Shown here in pieces: positions 13,802-32,616 of a DNA stretch of 53,329 nt. Source of the stretch: Undibacterium sp. GTDB lineage: Bacteria; Pseudomonadota; Gammaproteobacteria; Burkholderiales; Burkholderiaceae_D. Each line of letters opens with the position of its first letter. The stretch's first letter is position 1. Position numbers and translations under genes: made by a program. The notes beneath the pieces were generated by a model. It did no database searches. It was not told where the DNA came from and saw only the letters and a program-made list of their open reading frames with translations. The DNA lies in NCBI RefSeq assembly GCF_043770645.1, contig NZ_JAYVHZ010000202.1, one strand, 5' to 3'.

Positions 13802-13843
13802 CCCCCCTTCTCCCGCAAGCGGGAGAAGGGGCGGGGATGAGGG
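13802..13843. repeat. REP-like GC-rich hairpin
   Basis: CCCCTTCTCCCGC-AA-GCGGGAGAAGGGG followed by GGGGATGAGGG. Confidence 0.7.
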
Positions 13844-14107
13844 AGTTTCAAGTTCGATTAACAGCAGTAGCACTTGATACAGTATGACGATAATCAGGAC
13901 CTGTCAGGTGCTCATCATAGGGACTGAATATTCACGGTAATCCTTCTAATCCTTTAAATACCACGAAAAACAAATTCCGTACGCTCGGTGCCAACCTAGA
14001 AGTCAGCACTAATCAGCACTAGATAGAAGAATCTGAGCGACTCTAGTAAGATAGAGCGCTTCTGACATTCGTTAAATCAAAGATTCTCGCGTTAAAAGTC
14101 ATCCCCT

Positions 14108-14653
14108 ATGCTTCCAATATCCCCAGTCCCATCATCAGCACCATACGAATTCCGCCTTGCCAATCATGACGATGCACCAGCATTGGCGGCGCTAGCACGA
14201 CAAACATTCATCGATACCTATGCCGAACAAAATGATGCCGAACAGATTCGTGCGCACTGCGAAAAAAACTTCGGTATCTCACAACAAAGCAAAGAAATAG
14301 CCGACCCTGATTATGTGGTGATTCTCGCTTACCACGATGAAGAGCTCGTCGGCTTCGCGCAGGTCGTCAATAACCCACCGCCAGAGTCGATTGCTGCAGA
14401 CAAAGCGGTCGCGCTATATCGCTACTACGTTAAAAAAGAATGGCACGGCAAAGGTATCGCTCAACCACTATTGGCAGAAGCAGCGACAGCAGCAAAAACC
14501 TTCAATGCCAATCAACTTTGGTTAGGCATGTGGGAGCACAACGCGCGCGCCCTGGCCTATTACAAAAAGGTTGGGTTTGAACATGTGGGTTGGATGGACT
14601 ATGAATTTGGTGGCGTGATCGAACGGGATTATGTGTTGTTGAAGAATCTGTGA
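14108..14653 (+). CDS. GNAT N-acetyltransferase (PaiA-like)
   Basis: TFIDTY, WHGKGIA, LWLGMWEHNARALAYYKKVGF. Confidence 0.9.
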   Translation: MLPISPVPSSAPYEFRLANHDDAPALAALARQTFIDTYAEQNDAEQIRAHCEKNFGISQQSKEIADPDYVVILAYHDEELVGFAQVVNNPPPESIAADKAVALYRYYVKKEWHGKGIAQPLLAEAATAAKTFNANQLWLGMWEHNARALAYYKKVGFEHVGWMDYEFGGVIERDYVLLKNL

Positions 14654-14822
14654 AAACAAACTGTTCGGAGTATCGCCCTCTTTTTCAGCTTGGTATTTAA
14701 AATATGTGAAAACTTTTGCCAAAAAAAGTAGTCGAGATTTTGGTTCATTGAATTTAACTCCTCATAGCCGTATCGTTTCGGCAGAGTGTTCGATTCGTGT
14801 GATTTCTTTGATGAGAATTAAA

Positions 14823-15605
14823 ATGAAAAAATACTTAGCTTTGTGTCTGGTTTTGTTGACGATGGTGGCCTGTTCTAAAGTGCAAGCGCCAGCGGAATTA
14901 CAAGCGGAGCTGGCCGCGGAAAGTCAGAATGCGGCCTCTCGTTATTTAGCATATGAACATAGCATTGAGCTCGACACCGACGAAGAAAAAGTTTCCGAAA
15001 TCTTTAACAAAGCTTTGGCCGCTTGTCATGAGGCCAGCGATGCCTTGTGCACTGTTCTGCAATCAAATTTCAATACCGGTCGTTCAGCGTATGCTTCGCT
15101 CAAGTTTCGCGCCAAACCACAAGGCATACAAAAATTGATCAGCAGTTTGCGTCAACAGGGACAAGTGACAGATCAATCCACGACAGCAGAAGATCTGGCG
15201 GCACCGATTGAAGACAGCAGCAAAAAATTAGCCATGATGCAGGACTACAGAAGCAAATTAGAAGCTCTGCGTACCCGCGCTGCCAACGATGTCGACGCCT
15301 TGATAAAGGTCAACCGCGAACTAGCTCAAGTGCAATCAGAGATTGAAGCAGCGGAAGGAAAGAAAGCGCATTTGCTACAGAGAGTAGAAACGGAAATCTT
15401 AAACGTGCGAATTAGCTCACAAGAGAAACGCAGCTTTTGGACGCCAGTCGGCTACGCGCTGAGCGGCTTCAAAGCCGACTTTTCACAGGGCATTGCGACG
15501 GTGATTACCGCTAGCGCTTATATGATTCCATGGTTGGCCTTATTCGTGTTCTTGTTCTGGGCTGCACGCAAGCTGTGGCGTCGTCGACATATCTCGAAGA
15601 CCTGA
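14823..15605 (+). CDS. DUF4349 domain lipoprotein
   Basis: Lipobox MVAC, YLAYEH, TTAEDL, coiled coil and a C-terminal TM followed by RRR. Confidence 0.85.
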   Translation: MKKYLALCLVLLTMVACSKVQAPAELQAELAAESQNAASRYLAYEHSIELDTDEEKVSEIFNKALAACHEASDALCTVLQSNFNTGRSAYASLKFRAKPQGIQKLISSLRQQGQVTDQSTTAEDLAAPIEDSSKKLAMMQDYRSKLEALRTRAANDVDALIKVNRELAQVQSEIEAAEGKKAHLLQRVETEILNVRISSQEKRSFWTPVGYALSGFKADFSQGIATVITASAYMIPWLALFVFLFWAARKLWRRRHISKT

Positions 15606-15656
15606 ATACTCGCATAGAGATATGCCACGAATTTCTACAATATTCAAATCGCTTGC

Positions 15657-15684
15657 TTGACATGACCTAGAAGCTGGGTAGAAT
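15657..15684 (+). promoter_or_regulatory. Sigma70 promoter upstream of the cassette array
   Basis: TTGACA (15657-15662), 16-nt spacer, TAGAAT (15679-15684). Confidence 0.6.
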
Positions 15685-15854
15685 GCGAGTCAATTATAGT
15701 GACGGTTTTCGTAGAGAATTTAGTACTGATTGAGTGCGCACTGCATCTCTGAGGAGCTTTGCTGCAAAAGGGTTTTAAGAATATTTTTTAAACTTTTTAT
15801 GCGAACGGTGTCGGGTTTATTCGATGAATGGTTGCGGAAAACACGTTAGATCTT

Positions 15855-16421
15855 ATGGAACAAATACTTGAAATTGCCGCGTCGGTTAGATCGCATTACC
15901 TTGAGAAGATGATTGCATCGTTCGAAGACTTTCGCGCACTGCATTCGCCGTCAGCATTAGAGGTTTTGTTTGAATTGCAACGCGAATGTGAGTACCCATT
16001 TAGACTATATCGGGCCGATATGGCGTCGAACACAGAAGATGGACCGAAACTCCAAGATGTAAATCCGGAAGGATACTTGAACTTTAGTGCGATCACTGAG
16101 AGCATCTCTGAAAATTTGCAAGTGACGCTTAATCCGATTGTGTGGCATGGAGTAGATTTTGATTGCGACAAAGTGTTAGCTGAGACTGATTTGGAGGGTT
16201 GGGCAATGAGGTGGCTCGACGTCGATGATGAACATATACAAGATAGCGTAGGACTTCAAGGCGTTATTCATTCCGTGACAGCTCCGGAACTTCAAGGTTC
16301 ACGTACTGAATTTTCCGTTGACTTTGGTTCTGCTCCAGTGGAAGCACTCAAAGAATTATTGGATTTGCTTTCGTCAATCGGCGCGACCTCTGTGAAAATC
16401 CGTTCCTCATGCTTAGGTTAA
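15855..16421 (+). CDS. Hypothetical acidic protein (cassette 1)
   Basis: ATG 15855 follows the core GTTAGAT; the stop overlaps the complementary TAAGATCTAAC. Confidence 0.8.
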   Translation: MEQILEIAASVRSHYLEKMIASFEDFRALHSPSALEVLFELQRECEYPFRLYRADMASNTEDGPKLQDVNPEGYLNFSAITESISENLQVTLNPIVWHGVDFDCDKVLAETDLEGWAMRWLDVDDEHIQDSVGLQGVIHSVTAPELQGSRTEFSVDFGSAPVEALKELLDLLSSIGATSVKIRSSCLG

Positions 16422-16422
16422 G

Positions 16423-16476
16423 ATCTAACTCAACAATCGGTACGGACGCTTCGCGCCCGCCATTTCAGCATTAGGC
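16423..16476 (+). repeat. attC-like site
   Basis: ATCTAAC...GGACGCTTCGCGCCC...ATTAGGC, 54 bp, 59-base-element layout with a G>A change in the right core. Confidence 0.75.
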
Positions 16477-16481
16477 TTCAA

Positions 16482-16958
16482 ATGAAACTTTGGACTGCAC
16501 GTCTTGTTGTTGTCATGTCTTTCGCGAGTACCTCTTTGCTAGGTATTTCGGCAGAAGCTAGCGATTCTGTGGCGCTAATACGCTATGGAACCAGCTACGG
16601 AAAATGCATCGGCTACTGCTCAAAGAGCATCGAAGTGTTTCCCGCTCGGGTCGCGTTTATTGCAATTGCATATAACCAGACAAAGAGGCTTCCGGCAATT
16701 AGTAACGAAGCCAAGCTAGATAAGCAAGAGCACGAGGAATTGCGTCGCTTACTCAAGGAAGCATCTGTCAACGGTCTTGAAGAGCGAATTGGTTGCCCAG
16801 ATTGCACTGATGGAGGTGCCGAATGGATAGAGATCCCCCAACACGGTCGATTCAAGCGAATTACGTTCGAGAAGGGAAAACCGCCCACTCAGCTCAGAGC
16901 ACTAACAAACTGGCTGGGAACACTGCAGGGCAGATTCCCCGTCCCGTCGGTGCGATGA
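16482..16958 (+). CDS. Secreted Cys-motif hypothetical protein (cassette 2)
   Basis: Signal peptide; YGTSYGKCIGYC and IGCPDCTDGGAEWIEI. Confidence 0.8.
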   Translation: MKLWTARLVVVMSFASTSLLGISAEASDSVALIRYGTSYGKCIGYCSKSIEVFPARVAFIAIAYNQTKRLPAISNEAKLDKQEHEELRRLLKEASVNGLEERIGCPDCTDGGAEWIEIPQHGRFKRITFEKGKPPTQLRALTNWLGTLQGRFPVPSVR

Positions 16959-16959
16959 A

Positions 16960-16989
16960 GCCTAAACCTTCCATCGAGCAATGTTAAAA
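16960..16989 (+). repeat. Internally deleted attC-like site
   Basis: GCCTAAA-CCTTCCATCGAGC-AAT-GTTAAAA; only about 30 bp remain. Confidence 0.55.
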
Positions 16990-17002
16990 CCAAAAGGAAA
17001 TT

Positions 17003-17242
17003 ATGCAAATACTGTGGGAAATCTTAGTCGGTTGGGGGCCAATGTTTCTACTTATTGGTGTCTGGATTTATATGGCACGAAAAAGTGGAGGGATGAAGCA
17101 AGGTCAATACTTTGATGAAGTAAAGGTGTATCTGTCTGAGCATTTAGCCGAAACAAAGCAGCTAAACGTTAACTTGGAAAGAATTGCTAATGCGCTCGAG
17201 AGAAAAAATGCAGAGAGTAGCAACGATGGAAAAGATAAATAA
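17003..17242 (+). CDS. Small single-TM protein with an FtsH-TM2-like segment (cassette 3)
   Basis: AAGGAA RBS; WGPMFLLIGVWIYMARKSGG followed by a coiled coil. Confidence 0.75.
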   Translation: MQILWEILVGWGPMFLLIGVWIYMARKSGGMKQGQYFDEVKVYLSEHLAETKQLNVNLERIANALERKNAESSNDGKDK

Positions 17243-17254
17243 ATTATTGATTTC

Positions 17255-17365
17255 CATAGGAGTAATTTGCCGTTCAAGTTTTACCAGTATGGTCGGTCGG
17301 ATTGGCCGCGATACGGCTCAGTATTTTATAAATCTGTGGGCCACCTGCTCAACGTTGCGTTATAT
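17255..17365 (+). repeat. Eroded attC-like site
   Basis: Right arm GCCACCTGCTCAACGTTGC-GTTATAT is typical of attC 3' ends; the left arm is unclear and the left boundary approximate. Confidence 0.5.
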
Positions 17366-17385
17366 TTCAAGAGGAAGACTGACGA

Positions 17386-18078
17386 ATGGCCGATAGAGTA
17401 TTGCCACAACCAGAAAAATTTGCATCGTGCCCATACGATGAGAAGATACTCGATTTCTATGAAGGCCAATTCGACTCTGTGTTTGTCCTACTTCATCCTT
17501 TCTTCTATCCTCGGAAAATTAACATTGACCGGTTCTGTCCGGAGCATTGGCCAACAAAGCTTGAAATTATCGAGACTTGTGAAAGAGTTTCTTGGAAACG
17601 GATTATTGAATTGACCGAGCTATCTTCTTTCGCTCAAATAGATGTCGGACTAAGGACAAGTATTCAGGGATTAAATCGAGAAATTGCGAATGAAGATTAC
17701 GCATCTCGTTTAATCGAATTGACTCAAAAGGAAAATATCATTCGTCCACAAGAAGGAGATCTTCCACCTCTTCTCGAAAATCGAATTTATGAGGCGATTA
17801 AAGTTTTGGGACATGAGTGGTTGTGGGTTGGAGACGAATTTGGAACGGAGAGAAAGCTGCATTGGATTGATGACTTAATCAAGAGTGATGTAATCCCAGT
17901 TCACGGCTGTGTATTTACTCACGATCATAGTTTGCTAGTGACGACTCATTGGGATAGTCATTGCTCATTCTTATGTTCGTCGAAAGAGATCATTGAAGGA
18001 ATTTTAAAGGTTGATGATTTTGAAGGTTTCTACTGTACCGAAAAAACAGAAGTGTACTGGGGCGCATATGAAATATAG
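17386..18078 (+). CDS. DUF2711-like protein (cassette 4)
   Basis: FYEGQFDSVFVLLHPF, TTHWDSHCSFLCSS and FEGFYCTEKTEVYW, recalled as the DUF2711/YwbB-like family. Confidence 0.75.
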   Translation: MADRVLPQPEKFASCPYDEKILDFYEGQFDSVFVLLHPFFYPRKINIDRFCPEHWPTKLEIIETCERVSWKRIIELTELSSFAQIDVGLRTSIQGLNREIANEDYASRLIELTQKENIIRPQEGDLPPLLENRIYEAIKVLGHEWLWVGDEFGTERKLHWIDDLIKSDVIPVHGCVFTHDHSLLVTTHWDSHCSFLCSSKEIIEGILKVDDFEGFYCTEKTEVYWGAYEI

Positions 18079-18162
18079 CCGGACAATTGATCGGGCTGGC
18101 CGTGTTTGTACTGCATTCTTTCAAAATTTGTGTGCGACCCTCCGCGCATCTCAGCTTTAGAG
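18073..18162 (+). repeat. Eroded attC-like site
   Basis: ATATAGC (overlapping the stop) ... CCGCGCATCTCAGC-TTTAGAG. Confidence 0.55.
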
Positions 18163-18170
18163 GTCAGACA

Positions 18171-18554
18171 ATGAGCGCACTTGCAAGAATCAAAGCATGG
18201 TGGAAATCTCGTCAGCCCAAACGGTTAGAAGAGCTTTTGGAGGTTGAGTTCGATGCGCTTGAAGTTCGTATTCGTGTTCTAAGCGCCGAAATGGATCCGG
18301 GCTGGAATCAGACATTTTTCTGGGATAACATCGCGCGAGTTTGCTTCAAAGACGAAGGGCTTTGGACATCAGATAGTGTTTTTATTTCATTACACAATCA
18401 AGAATCTGTGGTTCATGTTTTAATTGAAGCAAAAGGTGGCTCGGAGTTTTTCGGTGAACTTTGCAATCGAGGTCTATTTCCAGAAAATATATGGCGCAAG
18501 GCTATGGGCGACACCAGTGGCGGAACCCATTGTTGGCCACCGTTTGATAAGTGA
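18171..18554 (+). CDS. Hypothetical protein (cassette 5)
   Basis: GAGG RBS then ATG 18171 (MSALARIK); the upstream TTG start would lie inside the attC-like site. Confidence 0.75.
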   Translation: MSALARIKAWWKSRQPKRLEELLEVEFDALEVRIRVLSAEMDPGWNQTFFWDNIARVCFKDEGLWTSDSVFISLHNQESVVHVLIEAKGGSEFFGELCNRGLFPENIWRKAMGDTSGGTHCWPPFDK

Positions 18555-18555
18555 C

Positions 18556-18645
18556 TGCTAAGTGGACATTCGAGGGTGAAGACGTGATATGGTTTTGTCT
18601 TCGTGTGAGCAGATTAGTGCGGCTCACGTCAATTTTGAGTTAGGC
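18556..18645 (+). repeat. Eroded attC-like site
   Basis: TGCTAAG ... CGTGTGAGC/GCTCACG stem ... GTTAGGC (canonical core at 18639). Confidence 0.55.
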
Positions 18646-18655
18646 CCATAGAGAT

Positions 18656-19057
18656 ATGACATATCAAGCTTCAATTGCGACCGTCGCCCTTGTAGTTCGA
18701 GACTATGACGAGGCACTTTCGTATTTCACTGAGGTATTTCGGTTCCAAGTCGTCGAGGACCTTGTCCTCACTCCAGAGAAGCGTTGGCTGGTCGTGGCGC
18801 CCCCTGGGTCTCTGGGGGCTCGGCTGCTCCTAGCAAAAGCATCAACGCCAGAGCAATTGGCACACATCGGGGACCAAACCGGCGGGCGCGTATTTCTGTT
18901 CCTCGAAACGGATGATTTCTGGGAGACTTATGCTCACTTGAAATCCCACGGAGTTACATTTACCGAGGAACCTCGCCAAGAGTCATATGGTACCGTCGTA
19001 GTGCTAGTTGATCTCTACGGCAACAAGTGGGATCTCATCGGGCGCCGACAGCCCTAA
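18656..19057 (+). CDS. VOC/glyoxalase family protein (cassette 6)
   Basis: ALVVRDYDEA, KRWLVVAPPG, GDQTGGRVFLFL, YGTV..DLYGNKWDL. Confidence 0.92.
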   Translation: MTYQASIATVALVVRDYDEALSYFTEVFRFQVVEDLVLTPEKRWLVVAPPGSLGARLLLAKASTPEQLAHIGDQTGGRVFLFLETDDFWETYAHLKSHGVTFTEEPRQESYGTVVVLVDLYGNKWDLIGRRQP

Positions 19058-19110
19058 TCCATTATTTAAGTGGGACACGTTCAAGCGTGCCCTTCATTCA
19101 AACCTTAGCA
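19052..19110 (+). repeat. attC-like site
   Basis: CCCTAAT...GGGACACG-TTCAAG-CGTGCCC...CTTAGCA, 59 bp; the stem has one unpaired base. Confidence 0.7.
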
Positions 19111-19547
19111 AAGTATAGAAAACCAACAAATAGTATTTATCGATACCTGCATCCAGCATTTTGTTTGGTCTGTGATTTTCCGTCAGAAATTGTTGATAAA
19201 AAATTGAATAGAATCTCTCCTGGATCTGGCCAGAACTTCTATCATTGGAGAGATGGATGGTCGGTATAGCTTTTGCTAACAAGACGCCCGATACAGAAAT
19301 TGCGCGAGTTGCCGCTTCAACCTGCTGCAAATCTTCATCACCAACTCTTCGCTTGTAAGGCGTCACGCGCAGCTCATATCATGGTTGAACCGAGCAAGGG
19401 CATGAAATGGCACACCAAATACCCAAGTAATTTCTAGCAAGTCGCTCAAGCTCGCACTCTTCGTGTGCTGTTATATTCCAAAAAACCACAACTTAAAAAC
19501 CAGCGTTGCACTTGGCGTCAAGCGTCGGAGAGAAAGAATAGGCTTTC

Positions 19548-19679
19548 ATGGGAATCGAATACAAAATCAAGTTCACCGTGCCCGACGACTTCAAGTCGTC
19601 CGGGCTGCTTGAAAAGCTTCCCAGTCCAATGTCGCTTAGTGGGACAGCGTGGACATGCGTAAAAAGCCTGCTTCTCTAA
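19548..19679 (+). pseudogene. Truncated small hypothetical gene
   Basis: MGIEYKIKFTVPDDFKSSGLLEKLPSP reads as protein-like sequence and then degenerates. Confidence 0.4.
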
Positions 19680-19690
19680 ATCAAGAATGA

Positions 19691-20185
19691 CTAAAGCAGG
19701 AGTTGCCAGTAACCGACATCAATCCAGCGATCTTGTTTGAAGCCGACTTGTTCAAAGTGCGCGACTTTTTTAAAGCCTAATCTTTCGTGTAATCTGATAC
19801 TGACCTCATTGGGAAGGGCGATGCCGCCAATCACTGCATGGGCTGACATCGCGCTAAGTTCGGTGAGAAGAGCGGTATAGAGCTGTGAGCCTATGCCTTT
19901 ACCGCTGGCGTCGACGGCTAGATAGACGGTCGATTCTAGTGAAAAACGATACGCAGCACGGGCTCTCCACTTAGTCGCATAGGCATAGCCTAGGATGTGA
20001 CCGGATTCCTCCGCGACCAGCCAAGGCAAAGATGCCGTGATCAAATCCGAAATTCGTTCAGACATCTCAGATGTTGATACAGGATCGGTTTCGAAGGTGA
20101 TGCAGGTTGCTGTGACATAGTGGTTGTAAATATCAGCGATGGCGGCGGCATCGTTAACTGTGGCGGGACGAATTGAGATAGTCAT
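19691..20185 (-). CDS. GNAT N-acetyltransferase, phosphinothricin acetyltransferase/ArsN1-like
   Basis: IYNHYV..TCITFE, LPWLVAE, GYAYATKWRARAAYRFSLESTVYL, LPNEVSIRLHERLGF, GFKQDRWIDVGYWQ. Confidence 0.9.
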   Translation of the reverse strand: MTISIRPATVNDAAAIADIYNHYVTATCITFETDPVSTSEMSERISDLITASLPWLVAEESGHILGYAYATKWRARAAYRFSLESTVYLAVDASGKGIGSQLYTALLTELSAMSAHAVIGGIALPNEVSIRLHERLGFKKVAHFEQVGFKQDRWIDVGYWQLLL

Positions 20186-20391
20186 GACGTGAATTGTGAG
20201 TGGATATCAATATCGTTAAGTACGGGTTTGAATTACTAGCGAGTTCTTTATTATTGAGTTTGGCGAATTAACTGTACACGTATCAGATCGCGCCCGTATG
20301 GAGACGACATTTGCCCTGAGGCTTGACGATGCTGAGTCAATCTAGCACCTCATTCAGGCGTATGGCCATGGGGTTGGTGTTTGCGGTTCGT

Positions 20392-20446
20392 GCTAATTCA
20401 CCAATGAGCATCAAGGTTTCACCATGCGGCACAAAAATTGACAAGC
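20392..20446. repeat. 55-bp direct repeat, copy A (remnant of an amidohydrolase 3' end)
   Basis: 50/55 identical to 28182-28236; the minus strand reads ACQFLCRMVKP*. Confidence 0.85.
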
Positions 20447-20538
20447 GGATAGGAAATTCAAGCCACTCACCTCAAGTATTCCACACCTCACCCCTTGTCG
20501 CCAATAGCCAATACATTTCTTGATTCCGGTATCCGTTC

Positions 20539-20964
20539 TTGAACCCCACCGTAGCTGGTGGGGTTATCAAGGAAGTTGAAACACTGGGCTTGCTCGGGAG
20601 CGTTGTCCTTGGAACTGCATTTCTCGCGATCGTTTTTCTGTACTGCCGTGATCTTTATCGGTCACTTTCCTTGGTGCGTCCGAGCGCGCGAAAAGCGTCT
20701 CCACGCAGCGTTTGGCTAATGTTTCTGATTCCCTACAACTTCGTCGAGGATTTCTTCATCATTGTTAATGTCGCGAACTCGCTACGGCAGGAAGCGCAAC
20801 ACAATATTGCGCTTCGTCCGTTCAAGAGCTTTGGCATGGTGCCAGGCATTGGTTGGTGCGCGGCGCAGATTGTATCTTTGCTGCCAAATGAGATCGGTGC
20901 AATCGCGGGCGTGCTGGCCTTACCCCTCTGGATCGCGCACTGGCGACTCATCGGCCGAAAATGA
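20539..20964 (+). pseudogene. Membrane protein, probably truncated at both ends
   Basis: Three to four hydrophobic segments (SVWLMFLIPYN); TTG start without an RBS; ends abruptly after the last TM. Confidence 0.5.
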
Positions 20965-21036
20965 CCGTAAAATCGCCGTCAGCGCTCAAATCGCACCGAA
21001 GGTGCGCTTAATGGAAAACCTCGGTTTAATCTCTGT

Positions 21037-24000
21037 TTAATGTATCTCGCGAATAAAAATAATCGGTGCATTTTTGTACACGCCTAAGGTTTGACGCCCC
21101 AGTCCAGGCAAGTAGGGGAATAAGGAATTGAGGTTAAAGCTGCCTTTGCTTGTAATGACCGGTGGGGTGATTGGTATGAGCAATTTGATCGTGCCGATAC
21201 CGGAGGTCATTGTGACACCCGTGTTGGCGGGGATATTTGTGGCCGTGGTCATGTTGGCCGCTGTGACCCCGCCCGCATGTCCGTTCAGGGAATAATTAGC
21301 TCGTGCCAACGACGTACAGTTGTCCAGTGTATTGGTGACGTAGGCGGAACCGTTCCAATATTGCGCTGCCAAGTTGACGGAAAGCGGTAACAGTTCTGAG
21401 CCATACGCATTTTCAATCCGCATACGACCATAACGAAGTTTTGTACTGCCGTAGAGTATAGTGTTGCTCGCAGTTATAGGTACACCGTTAAGACGTGTGA
21501 TGTTGGCGCCATCTGGGTCAGTAATGACTGTCTTGAGGGCGAAATTATCATAGGGTCCATCCTGTGTGCTGAGCCGATCAAAGCTGTGCAAGAAATTCAC
21601 GCCAGTTGAGGCTGCTGGTATGGGGAGCAAAAGAGGTGGCGTGATAGTGACAGCGACAGGTGTGACGGTATTCATCGTACCGCCAGCCGTCACTTGGTAG
21701 GTGTTGGGATCACCGGAAAACATCAACGAATCTCCATTGAGCACAACGCCTATTCCCAAGAGGTTGATCACGGTCGCTCCTGTGGCATAACCAGCGCCAT
21801 TCGTTGCGACGGAGCGGCCAGAGTTACCATTCGTCCAAAAGTAGCTGGGGAGGTCTGGCGTTAAGCGACTGTTAAGTGGTGAAATGGGTGTGCCGCTTGA
21901 ATCCCCACTCACAACCATGGTGGCAAGGGTCGGGTAACCTGACGTGTAATGATTGAGTGGTACGTCATTGCTGCTCAATGCTGTGGCCAACACGCCGATT
22001 GTTAAATTGGGTTGACCCATATAAGTAAAGCCGTTGCAGGCTGCACCAAGAAAGGCATTGATGGCATAGTGGTCTGGGTAAAAGCGTCCGAATTGGGCGG
22101 AAGCGCTTTGATTGGCAATAATGCAGCCAAATTTTCCGTTGCTGTCGGCAGTATTACTCGAACTACCAGCAACGCAGTCGCTCGGTTGATCCGTGCTTGT
22201 ATAGGTTTGATCCGAGATGCCGCCTGCCTTAATACTAAAGTTGCCGACATCGTCATATTTCATGGTGGCATTGCTGGCCAAGCCTGTGGCAATGGTGGCA
22301 GTACCAATGGGGATGGGGCTAATACCGCCCGTGCTCCCTAAATTTCCTGTGTAGTCAGTCGCACCGACGTGGGTGACAATCTTTTGTCCTAACAGCGTAT
22401 TATCGATCAGCGGTGTGCCGTTGTAACCGGCGACGGCCGTTGCACTGACCGTGAATGGCGCACCCGCGTTGAGTTTGGGTGTACCAGTTTGGGCCGCATT
22501 CGTCATAGTCGAGGCCACCGTCAAGTCACGCGGGCGGATGGCGAAATTGTCTGTTGAGCAGCCAGTGGTCGCCGTGCCACAACTGGCCGCATTGCAGGTC
22601 ACACGGACGCGGACATCACGGTAGGCGCTATAGTTTGGCGCAACGGCACTAAATGCATTGGCCGGGACAGTGATCCCCAATGAATTGCTGCGACCACTGT
22701 TAAACGCGATCGATCCCAAGGGAATGACCGCTGTTTGAGAGACGGGGCAATTATTGGCAGACAGCGCCACCCCGGTATTGGTGTTGACCAAAAGATCGAC
22801 AGTGGCGCTGTTCGAGTAGGTGGTTTCTAAGGTGCCGTCAATTTTGAGTTTGACAAAATCGAGGAGAAAAGCGGTGTTAGCTAATTTCGTCCATAACTTG
22901 GCATAAGCAAAAGACGCGCCGCTGGGGACGCATCGCGTCGCTGTGAGCTCACAGGCATTAAAGCGCGCGGTGAGGCAGGTGGTAATCACTAAGCCGGGGT
23001 CTTCCGATTCTTTGAACTGACCGTCGGTGACGTTGATATTGACCGTCGCAGCAGACGGGTAGTTGAGGCCGAAGACGGCTTGATACTCGCCATTAAATAA
23101 ATAAGTCGCCGCGCCGTCATTGGCGGCACCATTATTGAGCGTGCCGTAGCCACTGATTAGTGTCCAATCACCAATTCCTCCCGCTGTCGTAAGTTGAATT
23201 TGCGTTGTATTGTTAGGCATCGTGATGTTGCCGTGCAAACTGTCGTGCGCGGTGATCGTGACCTGACTTTGCTGACAAGTGAGGCCCGTACCCGCATGTG
23301 AAATGGCGTAGTGACTGAGGCAGCCAGAGGCACCAAGGTTTTGGTCGCGCTGAACTAAGGCTAAGCCCCCCTCAAAATTGTAGATGCGAAATTCATCGAT
23401 GATGCCATTGGTTGAATTGCCGGTGCCAGACGAACCGGTAAAACCGCTACGATTATCACCGATGTATAGCGTGCCGATTTGCGCTGAGATCGTGCCTGTG
23501 GTGGTAAAAGCGCCGGTCGCCTGCAAGACGCCATCGACATAAATGCGCAAACGATCGCTATTGGCTGCGCCTAAGACATTAAAACTCCAACTCACCGCGA
23601 TATGCTTCCAAGTATTGGCAGCGACCGCAATGGCGGCAGTCTCTGCACTGCGTACGTTTCCAAGACTATCTGTGATCACAAAACGCAAATTGCCATTACT
23701 CCGCCGGACTAAGAAAAACCACTGATTGTTGACCACCGTCGCATCAAGCAGTTGGGCATCGACGACACCACCACCTGACCAAGCGGTATTCGATTTGTAC
23801 CAGAAGGTGATCGTTCCTGTGCTACCCACCGTGGACGGCGTGGTGATGCCGGTATTGATCGCATCAATCGTGGCTGCGCTAGCATTATATGGAAAACTGG
23901 CGCCACGACACACTTTGCCATTGGCGATGGTTTGTGGACCGCCGAGTACGGTACCACTACGGCCATTGCCACTGGTATCAAGCACCTGTCCAGCAGCGTT

Positions 24001-24837
24001 CGTCCAGCTCGGTTGCTCCATGCGATATTCAGCAACTGGTTGGGGAATATAGAATTTAATTGCTGTGTTATTCGTCGGAAAACCCGTCGCAACCGTATCA
24101 TAGTCGGTGCTGTCTACATGCCAGCCAACTTGGCCAAGTGAAGCCGACGGGCCATTGACCGAAGTACCATATTGGTAAATAAACTCGCCATTTTCTTGCA
24201 AAATGATTTGTAAGTTGTAGGAACCGACTGGGTTGGAGCCTGTCGTCCATTCCGGGACATTATTCCAGGTCACCACAAAGCTACGATTCGGTGCTGAGCC
24301 TATCGTCGCGTAGCTGATGTAACAGGTGGTGGAACTGAGGCACGGCGTATTGTAGGCAGGAACATCCACTTTATTGGTCGGATCCAGATCATTGCCATAA
24401 ATGCGCATCGTGTAGTTCAGTGACGAGTTGGGGTAGGGTAAGGTTTGCACAGGGCTACCATAACCGCAGGTGAGATTGTTGTTAAATTGAATCCGACCAT
24501 TGGTCATGATTCTGATCGTGCTGAAATTGACGCCCGCATAGGTAAAATTAAATCCGATCGGAATGGCATCGCTCAAGGTATCGTCGGTCGTGGGAGGAGC
24601 GGTTCCGCAACCAGCGGCCGCCGTAAACTTATAGGGCACAGTGTTATAGCCGACCTTGGTATGGGCATTCGCATCGATCCAAGAAAACGGATAAGCCGAG
24701 TTGGCGTAAGTGCCTGCCAACGCTGTTTCACTGGTCAATAGACAACTTAGACAACTGATAATGAGTGCCCACGGTAGAAAGCGTGAAAAAGGGCCTTGCA
24801 TAGGATTCTCCAATTTGTTTATTCTTCCATTATTCAA
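21037..24837 (-). CDS. mshQ: MshQ-like pilus tip adhesin (LamG-like + DUF6701)
   Basis: Signal peptide, LamG-type WKHIAVSW..LRIYVDG..IDEFRIY, DNFAIRP, GRFYPDHY, LRYGRMRIENAYGSELLPL and terminal IFIREI; last gene of the msh minor-pilin operon. Confidence 0.8.
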   Translation of the reverse strand: MNNGRINKLENPMQGPFSRFLPWALIISCLSCLLTSETALAGTYANSAYPFSWIDANAHTKVGYNTVPYKFTAAAGCGTAPPTTDDTLSDAIPIGFNFTYAGVNFSTIRIMTNGRIQFNNNLTCGYGSPVQTLPYPNSSLNYTMRIYGNDLDPTNKVDVPAYNTPCLSSTTCYISYATIGSAPNRSFVVTWNNVPEWTTGSNPVGSYNLQIILQENGEFIYQYGTSVNGPSASLGQVGWHVDSTDYDTVATGFPTNNTAIKFYIPQPVAEYRMEQPSWTNAAGQVLDTSGNGRSGTVLGGPQTIANGKVCRGASFPYNASAATIDAINTGITTPSTVGSTGTITFWYKSNTAWSGGGVVDAQLLDATVVNNQWFFLVRRSNGNLRFVITDSLGNVRSAETAAIAVAANTWKHIAVSWSFNVLGAANSDRLRIYVDGVLQATGAFTTTGTISAQIGTLYIGDNRSGFTGSSGTGNSTNGIIDEFRIYNFEGGLALVQRDQNLGASGCLSHYAISHAGTGLTCQQSQVTITAHDSLHGNITMPNNTTQIQLTTAGGIGDWTLISGYGTLNNGAANDGAATYLFNGEYQAVFGLNYPSAATVNINVTDGQFKESEDPGLVITTCLTARFNACELTATRCVPSGASFAYAKLWTKLANTAFLLDFVKLKIDGTLETTYSNSATVDLLVNTNTGVALSANNCPVSQTAVIPLGSIAFNSGRSNSLGITVPANAFSAVAPNYSAYRDVRVRVTCNAASCGTATTGCSTDNFAIRPRDLTVASTMTNAAQTGTPKLNAGAPFTVSATAVAGYNGTPLIDNTLLGQKIVTHVGATDYTGNLGSTGGISPIPIGTATIATGLASNATMKYDDVGNFSIKAGGISDQTYTSTDQPSDCVAGSSSNTADSNGKFGCIIANQSASAQFGRFYPDHYAINAFLGAACNGFTYMGQPNLTIGVLATALSSNDVPLNHYTSGYPTLATMVVSGDSSGTPISPLNSRLTPDLPSYFWTNGNSGRSVATNGAGYATGATVINLLGIGVVLNGDSLMFSGDPNTYQVTAGGTMNTVTPVAVTITPPLLLPIPAASTGVNFLHSFDRLSTQDGPYDNFALKTVITDPDGANITRLNGVPITASNTILYGSTKLRYGRMRIENAYGSELLPLSVNLAAQYWNGSAYVTNTLDNCTSLARANYSLNGHAGGVTAANMTTATNIPANTGVTMTSGIGTIKLLIPITPPVITSKGSFNLNSLFPYLPGLGRQTLGVYKNAPIIFIREIH

Positions 24838-24860
24838 TTTCGTCGTCAGTCCAATGCCAC

Positions 24861-25340
24861 TTAGAATTCAACTTGCATGACTCGTTGTAAGTAGTCGGGG
24901 TTGTTCGTGGCATTCGGACAGCCAGCAGCGCCATTGGGTTGATTGCAAGCGGTCGAGGTCAATTGCCAGCGTTGCAAACTTCCTGGCCCTGACGTCAAAC
25001 TACAGGTCACCGTCACAGTAAATCCACTCAGTGAGTTACCTGCCGGAAGCGCAAACGTCGTTGTGGCAAAGCATGCGGCCGAGGGTATCGGACGGAGTTG
25101 CCGATACAAACCCCATTCTATGCCTGCACGGGCTGCTTGATATGCACGCGCCCCTTGAACATCAATGGCACTGCTCGATTGGTGGGTAGTTGATACCGCT
25201 ATCATGGCTGCTGCTAAAGCGGCTAAAACCACCAAGAGAAAAATGGCCGCAACCAAGCTCATTCCACGCATCGTTTTGCGTGCGACACAGTGCCTACTGC
25301 GTGGCGTTGTGCTGGGGCGTTGAAGTTTTTGTGGTCTCAT
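24861..25340 (-). CDS. mshP: MSHA biogenesis protein MshP-like
   Basis: RGMSLVAAIFLLVVLAAL prepilin segment without Glu5; GARAYQAARAGIEWG. Confidence 0.85.
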   Translation of the reverse strand: MRPQKLQRPSTTPRSRHCVARKTMRGMSLVAAIFLLVVLAALAAAMIAVSTTHQSSSAIDVQGARAYQAARAGIEWGLYRQLRPIPSAACFATTTFALPAGNSLSGFTVTVTCSLTSGPGSLQRWQLTSTACNQPNGAAGCPNATNNPDYLQRVMQVEF

Positions 25341-26290
25341 GGCGTGTTGTTGATATGAATTTGTTTAATCAGTGTCACGACACCGGTACTGCTGCTGGCG
25401 GCTCCAAAGGTGAGTCGGAGTGTGACCAAACCGCGCTGAACATTGGCAAGGCTGTTAAATAAAAATGCACAATCGGCGACCTGCTCTGCCATTCGCCCCC
25501 TAGTCGCGGTCGATAGTGGTGCCGCGAGAATGCTGATTGGCTGCGCCGCCTGTATGGCATACCCCGAATAACGCGTCAAAGTACCAGTCTTTGCCACGCC
25601 GCCGATCAAGCCATCACAATAGTAAGTTACGGGCGTTGTCACGACTTGAAAGCGCGCAGTAGGCGATCCCATTGACGGTACTTGGTTGACAAAAGGGTTG
25701 TCCGTCATGGTCACCACATTACCGACGATGCTAACGACAGTAGACCGATTACAAAGGCGATTAGGTGACACGCCGGTGCAATTATAAGCGTCGCTAGGAT
25801 CAAATCCTGGACCCAAGTTATAAACCACAATGGAATCTCCAGCGACAATCGTTTGTCTCCCCGAAGGTGGGGTGCCAACGATGTTGAAGGTGTTCGGGTT
25901 GGGGCTCGGTGTTGCCGCTGTAAAGTTGAGAACGCCTGAAAGTCCTAGCCCATCTTCTTCGGCCAAATACCGCCCCCCTGTTTTGGTCAAGAGAAATTCG
26001 AGATATCGGCCATCTGCTGAGATACGGACACTATTGGGCAAAGCCAAGTGTAAGTCGCGTGTGAGGCGATTGGCGGTGATATTGACAGCATCGGTTAATT
26101 CTGCACGAGCGACATTGTCGACGTAGTTTTGTATTGGAACCCGAATAAACAACGCCATCATGGTGGCTACGATGCCTGTCAGGACAATGACGACAATAAG
26201 TTCGACTAAGGTAAAACCGCGCCGCCTGGATATCTCCGGAGGTGGAAATAAATGTCGCTGTGTGCGCGATAATCGTAATCGTTTTTTCAT
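25337..26290 (-). CDS. mshO: MSHA minor pilin MshO-like
   Basis: RGFTLVELIVVI, RLTRDLHLALPNSVR and terminal HINNTP. Confidence 0.85.
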   Translation of the reverse strand: MKKRLRLSRTQRHLFPPPEISRRRGFTLVELIVVIVLTGIVATMMALFIRVPIQNYVDNVARAELTDAVNITANRLTRDLHLALPNSVRISADGRYLEFLLTKTGGRYLAEEDGLGLSGVLNFTAATPSPNPNTFNIVGTPPSGRQTIVAGDSIVVYNLGPGFDPSDAYNCTGVSPNRLCNRSTVVSIVGNVVTMTDNPFVNQVPSMGSPTARFQVVTTPVTYYCDGLIGGVAKTGTLTRYSGYAIQAAQPISILAAPLSTATRGRMAEQVADCAFLFNSLANVQRGLVTLRLTFGAASSSTGVVTLIKQIHINNTP

Positions 26291-26925
26291 GGGAGTGAAG
26301 TGGGTGCGTAGCGAGTACGATAGCCGTCGATGACCACGCTTTCGGCACCGTTCAGATAGCTCACGGTGACCGTGATGCGTAATACGTTCATATTGAGCGC
26401 TGTGCCATCTGCCGGCGTGATAGGAGAACCGGCGGGTCCCAAATTGGCGTCAGGATTGATCGTGACCGTGGCCGTATAGCCAGCGGGTAAGGCGCCACCT
26501 GCTGCGTCGGTCGCATAGACTAAGGGCGTGCCAAAGGTCGCCACATAGTCGCTGACGTTGTCATAAGGACGCGCAACGCCCCCTGCTTCTTGTCCTGCCA
26601 ACTCGGGTTTCGCGCAGGTCGCGGCGGTAGGTGCGGTGTCTGCGATGGGGTCTGTCGGGTCACAAAAGGTAAAGCTTGCGAGCTGTACCTCTTCTAGTAA
26701 GCTCTCCGCAATGGAGATCGCCTGCTTGCGTAATTGCGGGTCAGCGCTTATTTTGGTGGTCAAACTAAAGACTTCCAAAATACCTACCACCGCAACGGTG
26801 ATGATCATAATGGAGATGAGTAATTCAATGAGGGTGACACCGCGCATCCGTGCAACGGACGACAGCTGTTTTGTGCTAGCGACTGCCATTTGATGCGCAT
26901 CGTGCTGTCGTCTAAAAGTGCACAT
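26287..26925 (-). CDS. mshD: MSHA minor pilin MshD-like
   Basis: RGVTLIELLISI, SADPQLRKQAISIAESLLEEV, YDNVSDY, GYRTRY; start placed at MCTF, which overlaps the upstream gene. Confidence 0.82.
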   Translation of the reverse strand: MCTFRRQHDAHQMAVASTKQLSSVARMRGVTLIELLISIMIITVAVVGILEVFSLTTKISADPQLRKQAISIAESLLEEVQLASFTFCDPTDPIADTAPTAATCAKPELAGQEAGGVARPYDNVSDYVATFGTPLVYATDAAGGALPAGYTATVTINPDANLGPAGSPITPADGTALNMNVLRITVTVSYLNGAESVVIDGYRTRYAPTSLP

Positions 26926-27484
26926 AACCCGTCTCTGGTTCCACATAAATATCATGATTGTTACCATCACCCGTTATTCTAATGCGAAGTAGCGCGAAGC
27001 TCGAGACCGGTGTTGGAGAAACGTCAGCCGCCGCAAATGGTTTTCCCAGCGCATCAAAATAAAAATAGCTGATACTCGGGCTCAAAGTATAACTAATGCC
27101 CGTTGGTAAACCTTCACAATTCCACGTGCTGACATTATTGCAGGCCGCGAGTGTGTTGGACGTTTCACTATTTTTTAATGCGGGTGTGGCAACTTGATTG
27201 TCTACAGTGCAATTAGGAAAACTTCCATCCGATGGATAATTGAAACACATGGCAATGCTGGCGCCATCGAGCCGTACATAGACTGGGCGGTTTTGGGCGA
27301 TCGCTAACTTTTGTCCATACCGCAGCATCAATTGTGTTCTATCGACAAAGGTGCGTGCATCAAAAGATTGCCGGTCAAGAGAACGAGAAACGCCGATGCC
27401 ACCCAAGATCGCGATTAAGACTATCACGATGATGAGTTCAGCTAAGGTAAAACCAGCTTGCTTCGTTAAACCTGCCTTCCTCAT
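26912..27484 (-). CDS. mshC: MSHA minor pilin MshC-like
   Basis: AGFTLAELIIVI, LRYGQKLAIAQ, FDALGKP and terminal VEPETGYVH. Confidence 0.8.
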   Translation of the reverse strand: MRKAGLTKQAGFTLAELIIVIVLIAILGGIGVSRSLDRQSFDARTFVDRTQLMLRYGQKLAIAQNRPVYVRLDGASIAMCFNYPSDGSFPNCTVDNQVATPALKNSETSNTLAACNNVSTWNCEGLPTGISYTLSPSISYFYFDALGKPFAAADVSPTPVSSFALLRIRITGDGNNHDIYVEPETGYVHF

Positions 27485-28181
27485 GCGTTTCTCCAATTGG
27501 TGTTTTCTTTATGGGCAAAAAGATCGTGGGTAGGCCAGAATTTCCTACGCTATTCTTATCGTAGTTCCATTTTAAATGGAAACCAGTTCTCAACGTAACA
27601 ACCAACGGTGTTTCGGGCAACCTGCTGCAGGAGAACTAGGGAAAACTGGGGAACAAATGGATATGGCGCAATGACTTCAGTTATCACAGGTATCTATAGT
27701 GCCTATTTCCATTCAAATGTCAAGCTAGGTTCTATATCGATGAGCTAATGATGCCCCTACCCGAACTGCAGCACTTGTCAATCCTTAATCCGAGATTTTG
27801 CATTAGGCGCACCTTCGGTGCTTTTTGAGCATTGACGGCTATTTTGCGGTCATTTTAGGCTGATTTCATAATGGATGATGCAGGTCTATCATTCCATCTA
27901 ACCGCGCACGAAAAAAATCAGGAATCGTCATCTAATTTACCTCATTAAAACTCTCAGCAATTGCCGTCTATCTTAGCAATTATTGTGTGTTCCTACGGTG
28001 CTTTATTGCGGGCATTTCCTTGTCAGTGTTAGTTCTTGGTGATTTTGCAGGGTTGATTATCTAGTTGTCATTTGACGGTTTTTTTTTGAGAAGACTGATC
28101 GCTGGTCGTCAGATTCACAACAACATTTGTAGCAAATTGATTTGCCGCTGGCAATGGGGATAAAGGACGCCAAAGCTGTGG

Positions 28182-28236
28182 GCTAATTCACCAATGAGCC
28201 TCATGGCTTCACCATGCGCCATAAAAATTGACAAGC
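28182..28236. repeat. 55-bp direct repeat, copy B (true 3' end of the amidohydrolase)
   Basis: Matches 20392-20446. Confidence 0.85.
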
Positions 28237-29718
28237 CATCGCAAAACTACTCGTCTGTTTTTTGACGTAGCCGAGCAATTGGTCAAGGTCGGTCCTGCTG
28301 TGTACGCGGCCTTGGTGGATGACCGTGTCTATGCTTTGGCTGTGTGCGATGTCGATTAAGGGATTCTTGTTGATGATTACCAAATCTGCCTGATAACCGA
28401 CGGCGATCTTGCCGTAGTCGTTTTGCTTACCCATAAAGGTCGCTGGCTCGGTAGTCGCAGCAGCTAGTGCTTGCGCTGGTGTAAAACCGGCTTTGACCAA
28501 TTGCTGCAATTCTTCGTGTAAGGAAAAGCCGTGCGTGACGTAGGCATCCATGGCATCACTACCCGCCAAGACTTTGACGCCATGCTGACGCGCTTGCTGA
28601 CTGAGTTTTAATGAGGCTAGGTAATAGGCCTCTACGACTGCGCGGTGTTCTTGCTTCACGCCCGAGACCGCAAATTTTGCGTACAACCACCACAGCCAGC
28701 GTTGTGGTGCGATGACATATTGGTTATGTGGCTGAGTTTGGGGTGTTCCTTCTACTAGCATCCAGTCTTGACCGTTAGAAGCGACGTGCGTGGGGACAAA
28801 AGCGGTGCCTGCTTGCGCCATGCTGTCCAGCACCTGGGAGCAATCTTGCGCAGCAATTTGTTGTAGCAAAGCTTGTTTTGAGCGATTGCGGCCATCAAAT
28901 TGGGCGTGCTCTTTGGCGCACTGTGGCAATAAGGAATTGTCGTGCTCTATGCTGACGAGTTGCTTAGCGCGAGGGTCTAATAAGCTCGCGGTATAAGGAA
29001 AATGTCCGGCGACTGGCATGTTGGCGAGGCGTGCCGCATCTAGGATGACATAAAAACTTGCTGGGTTTGCGGTCGGTGCCAATTGCAGTTTAATCAGTTC
29101 ATCGCCACGATTTTTTAATTGACTTACCAACGCGCTTGCTCGCTGTTGTGTTTGTTGCGCATCCTGATTGTCTTCCAGATCTTCACCCAAATCCTCTACA
29201 TGAAATTGTGCAGCCTGATGAATATGGGGGCCAGACATCGTTCCTGTCTGAATTTGCGTGCGCCAGTTTTTGCTTAGCGAAACGCAATCCAAGCTGCCAG
29301 TCCAAGAGCAGCCATCACCCATGTCGCGTACGTGAGTGATGCCATTGGCGATCAAGAGCGGAAAATGTAATTGTGGTGACAGACTAATCGTATGCACATG
29401 CATATCCCATAAACCAGGGATTAGAAATTTTCCGGTACCGGAAATCGTCTGTGTATGATTCAGCGCCGGGGCTTGATCGTTGGCACCGACAAACGTGATG
29501 CGACCATTGCTAATCGCCACTGTTTGTGAAGGAAGTGCTTGCCCAGTCTCAGGCGAAATCACAGTAATATCGGTGATGAGAATGTCTTTTGGTGCTGCGA
29601 TTGTTGGCGCTTTAGTCATCGGTATTTGAACGCCGATGGTGACGATGATGGCGAGCGCTAAACCCAGATAGAGGAACAGTTTGAGTATGCGGAGTGTGAA
29701 GCGCCAGATTGATTTCAT
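28201..29718 (-). CDS. Amidohydrolase family protein (N-terminal membrane anchor)
   Basis: GKFLIPGLWDMHVH, NGITHVRDMG, AGSDA, LHEELQQLV, GKIAVGYQADLV..NPL. Confidence 0.92.
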   Translation of the reverse strand: MKSIWRFTLRILKLFLYLGLALAIIVTIGVQIPMTKAPTIAAPKDILITDITVISPETGQALPSQTVAISNGRITFVGANDQAPALNHTQTISGTGKFLIPGLWDMHVHTISLSPQLHFPLLIANGITHVRDMGDGCSWTGSLDCVSLSKNWRTQIQTGTMSGPHIHQAAQFHVEDLGEDLEDNQDAQQTQQRASALVSQLKNRGDELIKLQLAPTANPASFYVILDAARLANMPVAGHFPYTASLLDPRAKQLVSIEHDNSLLPQCAKEHAQFDGRNRSKQALLQQIAAQDCSQVLDSMAQAGTAFVPTHVASNGQDWMLVEGTPQTQPHNQYVIAPQRWLWWLYAKFAVSGVKQEHRAVVEAYYLASLKLSQQARQHGVKVLAGSDAMDAYVTHGFSLHEELQQLVKAGFTPAQALAAATTEPATFMGKQNDYGKIAVGYQADLVIINKNPLIDIAHSQSIDTVIHQGRVHSRTDLDQLLGYVKKQTSSFAMACQFLWRMVKP

Positions 29719-30014
29719 TTTGTGACTACCACCTTATGCTTTTTAAAGTACCAGAACATGACAGGAATCTCGATTGCGGTATAGGTCGCGAGTGTAAACC
29801 AAAACCAATTCACCTCTGTGACTAGCAAATTAAACTGGTAATCACTACCCCAATAGTGATAGCCGACAATCGCCAATGCGATACTAGATGTGCCGAGGTC
29901 ATATAAGGCGATCTTGTTGAAATCATTTCCCGCTAGTGTTGGATAAACCGAGAGGTAGGCTAGTAAAGTGATGCCGACATTGAGCAGGATGACTGTGAGT
30001 TCAGGGGGAAACAT
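29715..30014 (-). CDS. Small membrane hypothetical protein
   Basis: Three TM segments, VNWFWFTL; 4-nt overlap with the amidohydrolase start. Confidence 0.8.
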   Translation of the reverse strand: MFPPELTVILLNVGITLLAYLSVYPTLAGNDFNKIALYDLGTSSIALAIVGYHYWGSDYQFNLLVTEVNWFWFTLATYTAIEIPVMFWYFKKHKVVVTK

Positions 30015-30157
30015 AGGTGTCGTTACAAAAAATTTTTGGAGGCTTGAAGTTTAAAGCAAATGACTGAGCTTTCCTATGTTAGATTGGTTGCACGCCATAC
30101 TAAGAGAATGAACAGCCTCGTGCTCTCTTTACATTAATTGATCTCTATCCTCAAGAA

Positions 30158-31465: not shown

Positions 31466-31529
31466 GTTTCCTTATCTTGATATGTGGTTGACTAAATTTT
31501 TTGTAATGCATTTTTTTGGAGGTATATCG

Positions 31530-32489: not shown

Positions 32490-32490
32490 T

Positions 32491-32609: not shown

Positions 32610-32616
32610 CTGTGAT

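Follow-up and report, generated by a model that had tools for sequence, protein, structure and literature searches.

A CALIN variant in Undibacterium that keeps its attI site and a predicted promoter, and has probably taken cassettes from an integrase encoded elsewhere

Cassette arrays without an integrase gene are known as CALINs (clusters of attC sites that have no integron integrase), a class defined by at least two attC sites with no intI nearby, and loss of intI is listed as one of their origins (PMC4889954; the origins are repeated in PMC8618304). CALINs with very degenerate attC sites have been proposed as a step to gene stabilisation, so the idea that such an array stabilises genes is already in print (PMC4889954). 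The same paper describes the attI site as unknown for most integrons and not searchable, and CALIN gene expression as unknown, and it treats CALINs chiefly as donors of cassettes. Both PMC9668308 and 10.1101/2025.06.18.660453 state that mobilisation in trans is possible for CALINs, and 10.1101/2022.09.11.507474 describes off-target insertion of cassettes at genomic sites. We present the case of a six-cassette array that starts at position 15846 of a 53,329-nucleotide contig of Undibacterium sp. (assembly GCF_043770645.1, contig NZ_JAYVHZ010000202.1; the whole contig is our window). An earlier note, made from the letters of this DNA, had described it as an eroding CALIN-like array at 15845..19110 with no integrase.

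We read the locus as an orphan platform, in which intI has been deleted down to the 22 codons that hold a predicted cassette promoter (Pc), Pc and attI are kept, and the attI has probably taken up cassettes from an integrase encoded elsewhere. We give this reading a probability of about two in three. On this reading the locus is likely a satellite at which cassettes are inserted and expressed with the help of an integrase in trans. By our own attC models it has the two or more attC sites and the lack of a nearby integrase that define a CALIN. As a complete integron it lacks the adjacent intI, which is reduced to a stub, and has the attI at its head. None of its six attC sites is predicted to be recombination-competent, as all six have changed triplets. 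It is not a SALIN (a single attC site lacking an integron-integrase) or an off-target insertion, as the first cassette follows a homologue of attI. Judged from its sequence, the locus is a CALIN variant that keeps its Pc-attI, and not a complete integron. The window is contig C202 of genome G000, an assembly of 670 contigs and 4.77 Mb (91% complete, 4.2% contamination). Below, C272, C599, C80 and C415 are other contigs of the same genome, and G-numbers are other genomes of the genus, 83 of which were searched for the locus.

The head of the array is recognised by homology to an intact integron of the same genome. The 201 bp at window positions 15647-15847 match the head in front of the intact C272 intI at 78.6% identity (E 3e-40), and the block runs in the same order: intI 5' end, Pc, LexA box, attI. 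Its features are:

15647..15712, minus strand: intI stub, the first 22 codons, with start ATG changed to ACG and a stop codon at the deletion junction
15657..15684, plus strand: predicted Pc-like sigma70 promoter, TTGACA-16-TAGAAT, within the intI stub and directed into the array
15726..15741, no strand given: putative decayed LexA-box-like operator of the intI promoter PintI, CTG-N10-CAG changed to CTG-N10-CAC
15800..15851, plus strand: attI, left limit approximate, assigned by homology to the site beside an intact intI; L box 15833-15839, R box GTTAGAT 15845-15851, crossover G|TT at 15845/15846

The stub translates as TKTVTIIDSHSTQLLGHVKQAI followed by a stop, against MKTDTAIPLHSTKLLDRVKEAI in the intact C272 intI. 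The predicted promoter matches the consensus at 11 of 12 positions, TTGAC-16-TAGAAT is found at the same position in 16 of 17 aligned head copies, and the surviving intI codons are the ones that hold it. The sequence at 15726..15741 we take to be a LexA box from its motif. Its CAG is kept in the three copies that stand beside a full intI (L071, L073 and C272) and is CAC in all four copies at this locus; the box has decayed and Pc has been kept. Identity among the 17 head copies ends directly after GTT (15845-15847). This end point and the homology to the C272 head identify the first bracket, at 15845, as attI and not as the attC core for which it had been mistaken, so that the array keeps its head, which we read as attI together with what is left of intI and the Pc-like promoter. 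Upstream of the array lies a DUF4349 gene.

The evidence for continued capture comes from the same site in relatives. The locus is present in three of the 83 genomes (G024, G095 and G096), all of which share with the window one deletion junction and have no intI there. Behind this junction G024, G095 and G096 hold one, two and one cassettes, respectively, before a common downstream flank (matched by eye in G024). These cassettes are unrelated to each other and to the six of the window, none is common to the four genomes, and several keep an intact attC. Between G095 and G096 identity is 96.8% as far as the attI crossover; their cassettes do not align, and past the last attC identity is back at 92.6%. 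Such differences in cassette content at one intI-less site suggest that the orphan head likely kept capturing cassettes in trans. Synonymous divergence (dS) points the same way for cassette 1. Compared with its copy in G007, which sits at another class of attI, cassette 1 has a dS of 0.17 (95% bootstrap 0.10-0.26), whereas the flanking genes have 0.40-0.75 between the window and the platform-sharing genomes (lowest bound 0.32) and core genes 1.3 or more against G007. Cassette 1 thus moved after the platform split and the deletion of intI. (L003 was tried as a core-gene marker and rejected as unsuitable.) A second intI-less platform, beside a gene that we take to be hemE-like, is found in G008, G021 and G041 with three different first cassettes; distal cassettes there are common to G008 and G041.

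An integrase that could act in trans is present in the genome. Two full-length intI genes, on C272 and C599, have open frames, score above the TIGR02249 cut-off and carry what we take to be the catalytic motifs of IntI; the composition of both contigs fits the assembly. No further intI is found in this assembly. In the window, tblastn with the C599 IntI reaches a best E of 0.64 and identifies no intI beyond the stub, neither IntI hits C202 in a whole-genome search at E<=1e-3, and there is no TIGR02249 match on C202. The lack of an integrase claimed in the earlier note is thus true of the 53 kb and not of the genome. The C272 and C599 integrons have the same first cassette (C272:14376-14474 and C599:2316-2409), which is also first in L012, an integron in G008; the three are at different attI classes. 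This cassette starts with GTTCCC and not with GTTRRRY, includes a LexA-box-like sequence, and both contigs break inside it.

In an integrated cassette, the TTRRRY at the front comes from the cassette's own attC, and the complementary RYYYAAC stands at the end. All six genes of the array are bracketed by such complementary cores, with 5/7 to 11/11 matches, and all six open reading frames (ORFs) are open; all six are integron cassettes. The earlier note had bracketed five. We find its five inverted pairs at the same coordinates and with the same counts (11/11, 10/10, 10/11, 8/10 and 5/7), and gene 3 is bracketed as well (TTAAAAC 16984 / GTTTTAC 17278, 6/7). Nor does the array end at 19110, as cassette remnants continue beyond. 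The cassettes and remnants are:

15846..16470, plus strand: cassette 1; ORF 15855-16421, 188 aa, no family; attC1 16423-16476, GTT changed to ATT
16471..16983, plus strand: cassette 2; ORF 16482-16958, 158 aa; attC2 16960-16989, AAC changed to AAA and centre deleted, 30 bp left
16984..17359, plus strand: cassette 3; ORF 17003-17242, 79 aa, with a segment like the second transmembrane helix (TM2) of FtsH; attC3 17279-17365, AAC changed to ACC
17360..18156, plus strand: cassette 4; ORF 17386-18078, 230 aa, DUF2711 (PF10924); attC4 18073-18162, AAC changed to AGC and GTT to TTT
18157..18639, plus strand: cassette 5; ORF 18171-18554, 127 aa, no family; attC5 18556-18645, AAC changed to AAG
18640..19104, plus strand: cassette 6; ORF 18656-19057, 133 aa, VOC/glyoxalase fold (PF00903); attC6 19052-19110, AAC changed to AAT and GTT to CTT
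19105..19330, plus strand: remnant cassette 7, about 170 bp, no ATG-started gene; right limit approximate
19432..19480, plus strand: further attC-like left half, tentative, AAC changed to AGC

The brackets and the direct alignments were each compared with a background. For the brackets, each of 4139 non-shadow ORFs of the genome was given the score of its best TTR-anchored 10-mer inverted match, with one arm ahead of the start and the other around the stop. A 10/10 match occurs in 2 of them, at least 9 in 42, at least 8 in 232 and at least 7 in 1159, and some of the high-scoring ORFs in this background are cassettes themselves. Genes 1 (from the ATG at 15855) and 2 score 10, gene 4 scores 9, gene 5 scores 8 and gene 6 scores 7. 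The run of brackets is far beyond chance, and the gene-6 match alone is at chance level. A first attC model (R1), built from 18 sequences picked from 28 heuristic candidates in relatives' arrays and then aligned, finds attC1 and a weak attC6 in the window, 26 more attC sites on 16 other contigs of the genome, and 41 in relatives' loci. Since R1 misses three sites of 87-90 bp, we built a second model (R2) from those 41 sites, a training set that includes homologues of attC1 and attC4. The top four R2 hits in the 53 kb are attC1, attC5, attC3 and attC4 (37.4, 25.8, 24.7 and 23.1 bits), and the next hit has 9.4 bits. With two of the six sites found by R1 and four by R2 at E<=0.0012, attC models do miss sites here, as had been suspected. 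In the alignment test each candidate site was aligned to an intact attC and compared with 150 random control segments, and sites 1, 3, 4 and 6 beat all 150. A scan of 12-22 kb against Rfam gives a single weak, irrelevant match.

Site by site, attC1 is the strongest (E 2.7e-7 with R2; 36.2 bits with R1). For attC3 (E 4.6e-4 with R2) the aligned intact site is an attC in L073, and for attC5 (E 2.4e-4 with R2), aligned to an intact attC of C80, one of the 150 controls scores higher. The R2 score of attC4 is obtained with a homologous attC in the training set. Both models score attC6 weakly (13.3 bits, E 0.41 with R1; 8.2 bits with R2). The 30-bp attC2 is missed by R1 and R2, its alignment is no better than random (16 of 150 controls reach its score), and it is assigned by its 10/10 inverted cores and its position only. 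Remnant cassette 7 has an intact R'' TGCTAAC at 19274, and a left attC half only, and TTAGCAAAG matches TTTTGCTAA there at 8 of 9 positions; the alignment of the half-site is weak, with 2 of 150 controls as high. The half-site at 19432-19480 is missed by both models and has an alignment score of 20 against a control maximum of 19. After it, a short ATG-started frame of at least 38 codons (19548-19661) is possibly a further cassette remnant.

Two of the six genes are found elsewhere as cassettes. Gene 1, whose likely start is the ATG at 15855 (the ATG at 15828 lies within attI), has a homologue in G007 that is 94% identical and has an intact GTT; in the Atlas it matches unnamed clusters only. 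Gene 4 has a 90% identical homologue in G048 with intact triplets. The earlier note asked whether homologues have intact attC sites elsewhere; this holds for genes 1 and 4, and for genes 2, 3 and 5 we find no cassette-borne homologue. Gene 2 has a match to Emfourin (PF20242) at E 0.0015, below the cut-off, and 822 distant relatives that come without genomic context; an exact-pattern search of metagenome contigs confirms no relative. The same kind of search in genome contigs confirms none for gene 5, whose homologues in two other genera have an attC at none of three loci. Of three gene-6 homologues, two have neither attI nor attC, and the third stands at an orphan attI and has no attC. For gene 3 the 83 genomes yield matches to FtsH segments only, and no true homologue. 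Its product has the FtsH-like segment GPMxLLIGVW (NCBIfam FtsH residues 98-139, E 3e-5) and, after it, a tail that is likely coiled-coil-like. It is a member of a small family of stand-alone proteins (8 matches of 56-112 aa, one near-identical to the query), and could be a membrane-anchored modulator of FtsH.

As the earlier note had claimed, every attC site has a lesion while the ORFs stay open; in all six a triplet is changed. The predicted folds of attC3 and attC4 lose the canonical hairpin that is present in their intact counterparts. Because the homologues of cassettes 1 and 4 in G007 and G048 have intact triplets, the lesions of the window are derived. The present cassettes are likely locked in, but the site was not inert; the further claim that they have been domesticated, in the sense of selection for the lesions, is unproven. 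Such selection would lock useful Pc-expressed genes against excision by a trans-acting integrase, and we regard it as less likely than not. In its favour, triplets are changed in 6 of 6 sites here against 6 of 26 other attC sites in the genome and 7 of 41 in relatives, although the model that supplied these comparison sets favours intact sites. Between attC1 and its intact homologue there are only four differences in 50 aligned bases, and the G of GTT is among them. The ratio of nonsynonymous to synonymous divergence (dN/dS) is 0.17 for gene 1, 0.15 for gene 4 and 0.08 for gene 6, each against a homologue elsewhere, so that the values include time spent in other genomes; purifying selection on the ORF is indicated for these three genes only. 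By chance alone all six sites are hit with p about 0.005-0.3 at per-base divergences of 0.085-0.25, before allowing for the loss of excisable cassettes, and 8% of the time at a divergence of 0.165. Excision removes cassettes with intact sites without any benefit from their genes, and attC3 and attC4 are changed at many positions outside the triplets too. Neutral decay together with the loss of excisable cassettes would be enough; selection is possible and not needed.

The window is one of many such heads in the genus. Its head class is found in 18 of 84 genomes, with up to five copies each, in states from full intI to stub, and the copies are 78-88% alike. Among nine stub-only heads there are five different deletion junctions, all about 10-45 bp upstream of the -35 box; inspection of the left deletion junctions by eye shows no GWT-type site-specific signature. 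G024 carries one copy with the junction of the window at a locus unrelated to this one; a second head stands 1.8 kb behind the first. We built attI profiles for six classes, seeded only from DNA beside intI genes (that of L023 being a broken copy). They find 23 sites in this genome, against none when the genome is reversed. Of these sites, two lie next to an intI; the other 21 have no adjacent intI, and for 17 of them the contig extends at least 1.2 kb upstream. Promoter scans of 21 orphan heads give 7-11 of 12 consensus matches, with no control set, and only the promoter of the window is strong. For attC loci without intI we used four better assemblies, which avoids artefacts of metagenome-assembled genomes. 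An orphan attI stands about one gene upstream of the attC at 6 of 7 loci in G007, 4 of 5 in G024, 1 of 4 in G073 and 0 of 1 in G045, or 11 of 17 in total, a count that leaves out three loci truncated at the end of a contig and one that had been selected for its attI, and that includes only part of the G024 attC loci. A fifth genome, G014, has no attC match. At C415:1-3750, four attI-like sites of one class are in tandem within one array (three with E<=0.01, the fourth by blastn), and the one near 1957 is fused to a left attC half. An attC-like left half likewise stands ahead of the hemE-side heads in G008, G021 and G041. These arrangements may hint at how heads are copied.

In the mechanism that we propose, the starting point is a head homologous to the intI-Pc-attI of an intact integron in the genome, with a deletion junction that four genomes share. 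Unrelated cassettes then lie between the same attI crossover and the downstream DNA in these genomes. They would have been inserted by recombination of attC with attI in trans, most plausibly by the cognate, predicted SOS-controlled C272 IntI or a relative of it. Pc would transcribe at least the first cassettes, which may explain that deletions made independently in the genus all end a short way upstream of the -35 box. The six attC sites would have been damaged since, and the cassettes would no longer excise.

Several observations weigh against this mechanism. The downstream flank common to the three relatives is not found in this assembly, and intI and array are only binned together, in 670 contigs with 4.2% contamination. 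The attI of the window has private changes, one of them in the L box, and may now be weak. Cassette 4 has a dS of 0.33 (0.23-0.46), which overlaps that of the flanks. G095 and G096 have full intI genes only of other classes (65% and 56% identity to the C272 IntI), so a non-cognate or since-lost integrase is needed there, and G041 has orphan heads and only broken pieces of intI. In two other studies, contigs run without gaps across cassettes 2-3, 3-4 and 4-5 (16/631, 7/395 and 15/389 letters different), and a run from the source study bridges cassettes 5-6, so the array now looks stable. Among the matches listed, that of one low-depth contig ends at 16471, where cassette 2 begins, and another contig departs from the array immediately past the attC5 crossover; each is a single contig and a hint only. 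The block around the platform (14100-33000) is closer to G095, G096 and G024 (dS 0.4-0.75) than core genes are (1.1-2.6), and the block with its orphan head has therefore been exchanged laterally between Undibacterium species. Homologous exchange of this kind could also swap arrays.

This last point leads to the reading that the arrays formed at intact integrons and came to stand behind the intI-less head through homologous recombination or the lateral transfer of a block, the conserved head serving as one homology arm and no integrase acting on the orphan attI. The block dS far below that of the core, and the several copies per genome of heads so much alike, are what it predicts. A donor would, however, need the same downstream flank, as the sequences of G095 and G096 become common again precisely at G|TT in the last attC, and none of the three relatives with the locus, out of 83 genomes, has an intI there; we consider this reading improbable. 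Slightly less probable still is a dead relic, a long ancestral array that predates the loss of intI and of which the lineages kept different subsets by deletion, with no insertion since. The damage to all six attC sites, the remnants that trail the array and its stable order in other samples agree with a relic, as do the fixed arrays with inactivated intI in Xanthomonas (10.1101/2025.06.18.660453). It needs at least ten ancestral cassettes without overlap among four genomes, however, and precise losses at att crossovers, which imply IntI; cassette 1 is younger than the platform split, and several cassettes of relatives have intact attC sites. That there is no integron at all, only chance inverted matches around ordinary chromosomal genes, agrees with the gene-6 bracket and with the homologues of genes 5 and 6 that lack att sites in other contexts. 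It is refuted by the attI at the head, by the intact cassette homologues of genes 1 and 4, and by the ranking of four spacers at 23-37 bits as the top attC-model hits; the genes are also not syntenic in relatives, and the earlier note's reading of IntI-type cassettes with eroded attC sites is borne out. Capture in trans at an orphan platform is the reading that we prefer. Beyond it, at a little under even odds, we suggest that Undibacterium runs a distributed integron, in which one to three integrase loci would serve about 20 dispersed promoter-attI pads of several classes, spread by duplication and lateral transfer without intI, that capture, express and then fix cassettes as their attC sites decay. 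Many bacterial CALINs may be hidden pads of this kind, which go unnoticed because there is no way to search for their attI.

Some neighbouring features stand apart from the array. Directly after its remnants and opposite to the cassette direction, 19691-20185 (minus strand) encodes an N-acetyltransferase of ArsN1 family B, an arsinothricin resistance family, above the NCBIfam cut-off; the gene is not there in G095 or G096. The approximately 8 kb at 20450-28180, between the array region and an amidohydrolase gene, have no counterpart in G095 and G096 either. They hold three N-methyl pilin-like genes and a 1266-aa DUF6701/LamG gene, and are presumably an MSHA-like cluster. A short intergenic element at 13805-13850 is matched by many contigs in four runs that then leave it on both sides, and is likely a dispersed repeat.

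An eroded array by itself would be ordinary. CALINs are usually viewed as promoterless leftovers or cassette donors, and their expression and further gain of cassettes are an open question in PMC4889954. This locus is a concrete, testable case, with a defined orphan Pc-attI, a cognate integrase encoded by the genome itself, and close relatives that carry other cassettes at the site, and it would show a staged route from mobile cassette to fixed gene. The profiles made from DNA beside intact intI find orphan attI heads that are invisible to tools that use attC only, at 11 of the 17 loci above. In the literature covered, we met no account of dispersed intI-less Pc-attI heads gaining cassettes, nor of Undibacterium integrons; supplements and most subscription papers were outside this coverage, so that absence from print is not established.

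Among known systems, the locus is closest to the CALIN of PMC4889954, with a minimum of two attC sites and no intI nearby. It differs in keeping attI and a Pc-like promoter, and comparative data indicate a gain of cassettes after the loss of intI. With sedentary chromosomal integrons such as that of C272 it shares the head (Pc in the intI 5' end, a LexA-like box and attI) and cassettes in the direction of Pc, but its intI is cut to 22 codons, its LexA-like box has decayed and all its attC sites are damaged. The Xanthomonas integrons described in 10.1101/2025.06.18.660453 similarly lose the integrase by deletion or stops while the array stays, with lineage-fixed cassettes. There, one main platform at ilvD freezes after inactivation, whereas here relatives have different cassettes behind the intI-less heads of one locus, and a genome has many such heads. 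Finally, SALINs and insertions at non-att sites (10.1101/2022.09.11.507474) are, as proposed for this locus, cassettes far from intI that an integrase in trans has inserted and that are expressed if a promoter is near; the target in our case is a true copy of attI, with the integron's own predicted promoter.

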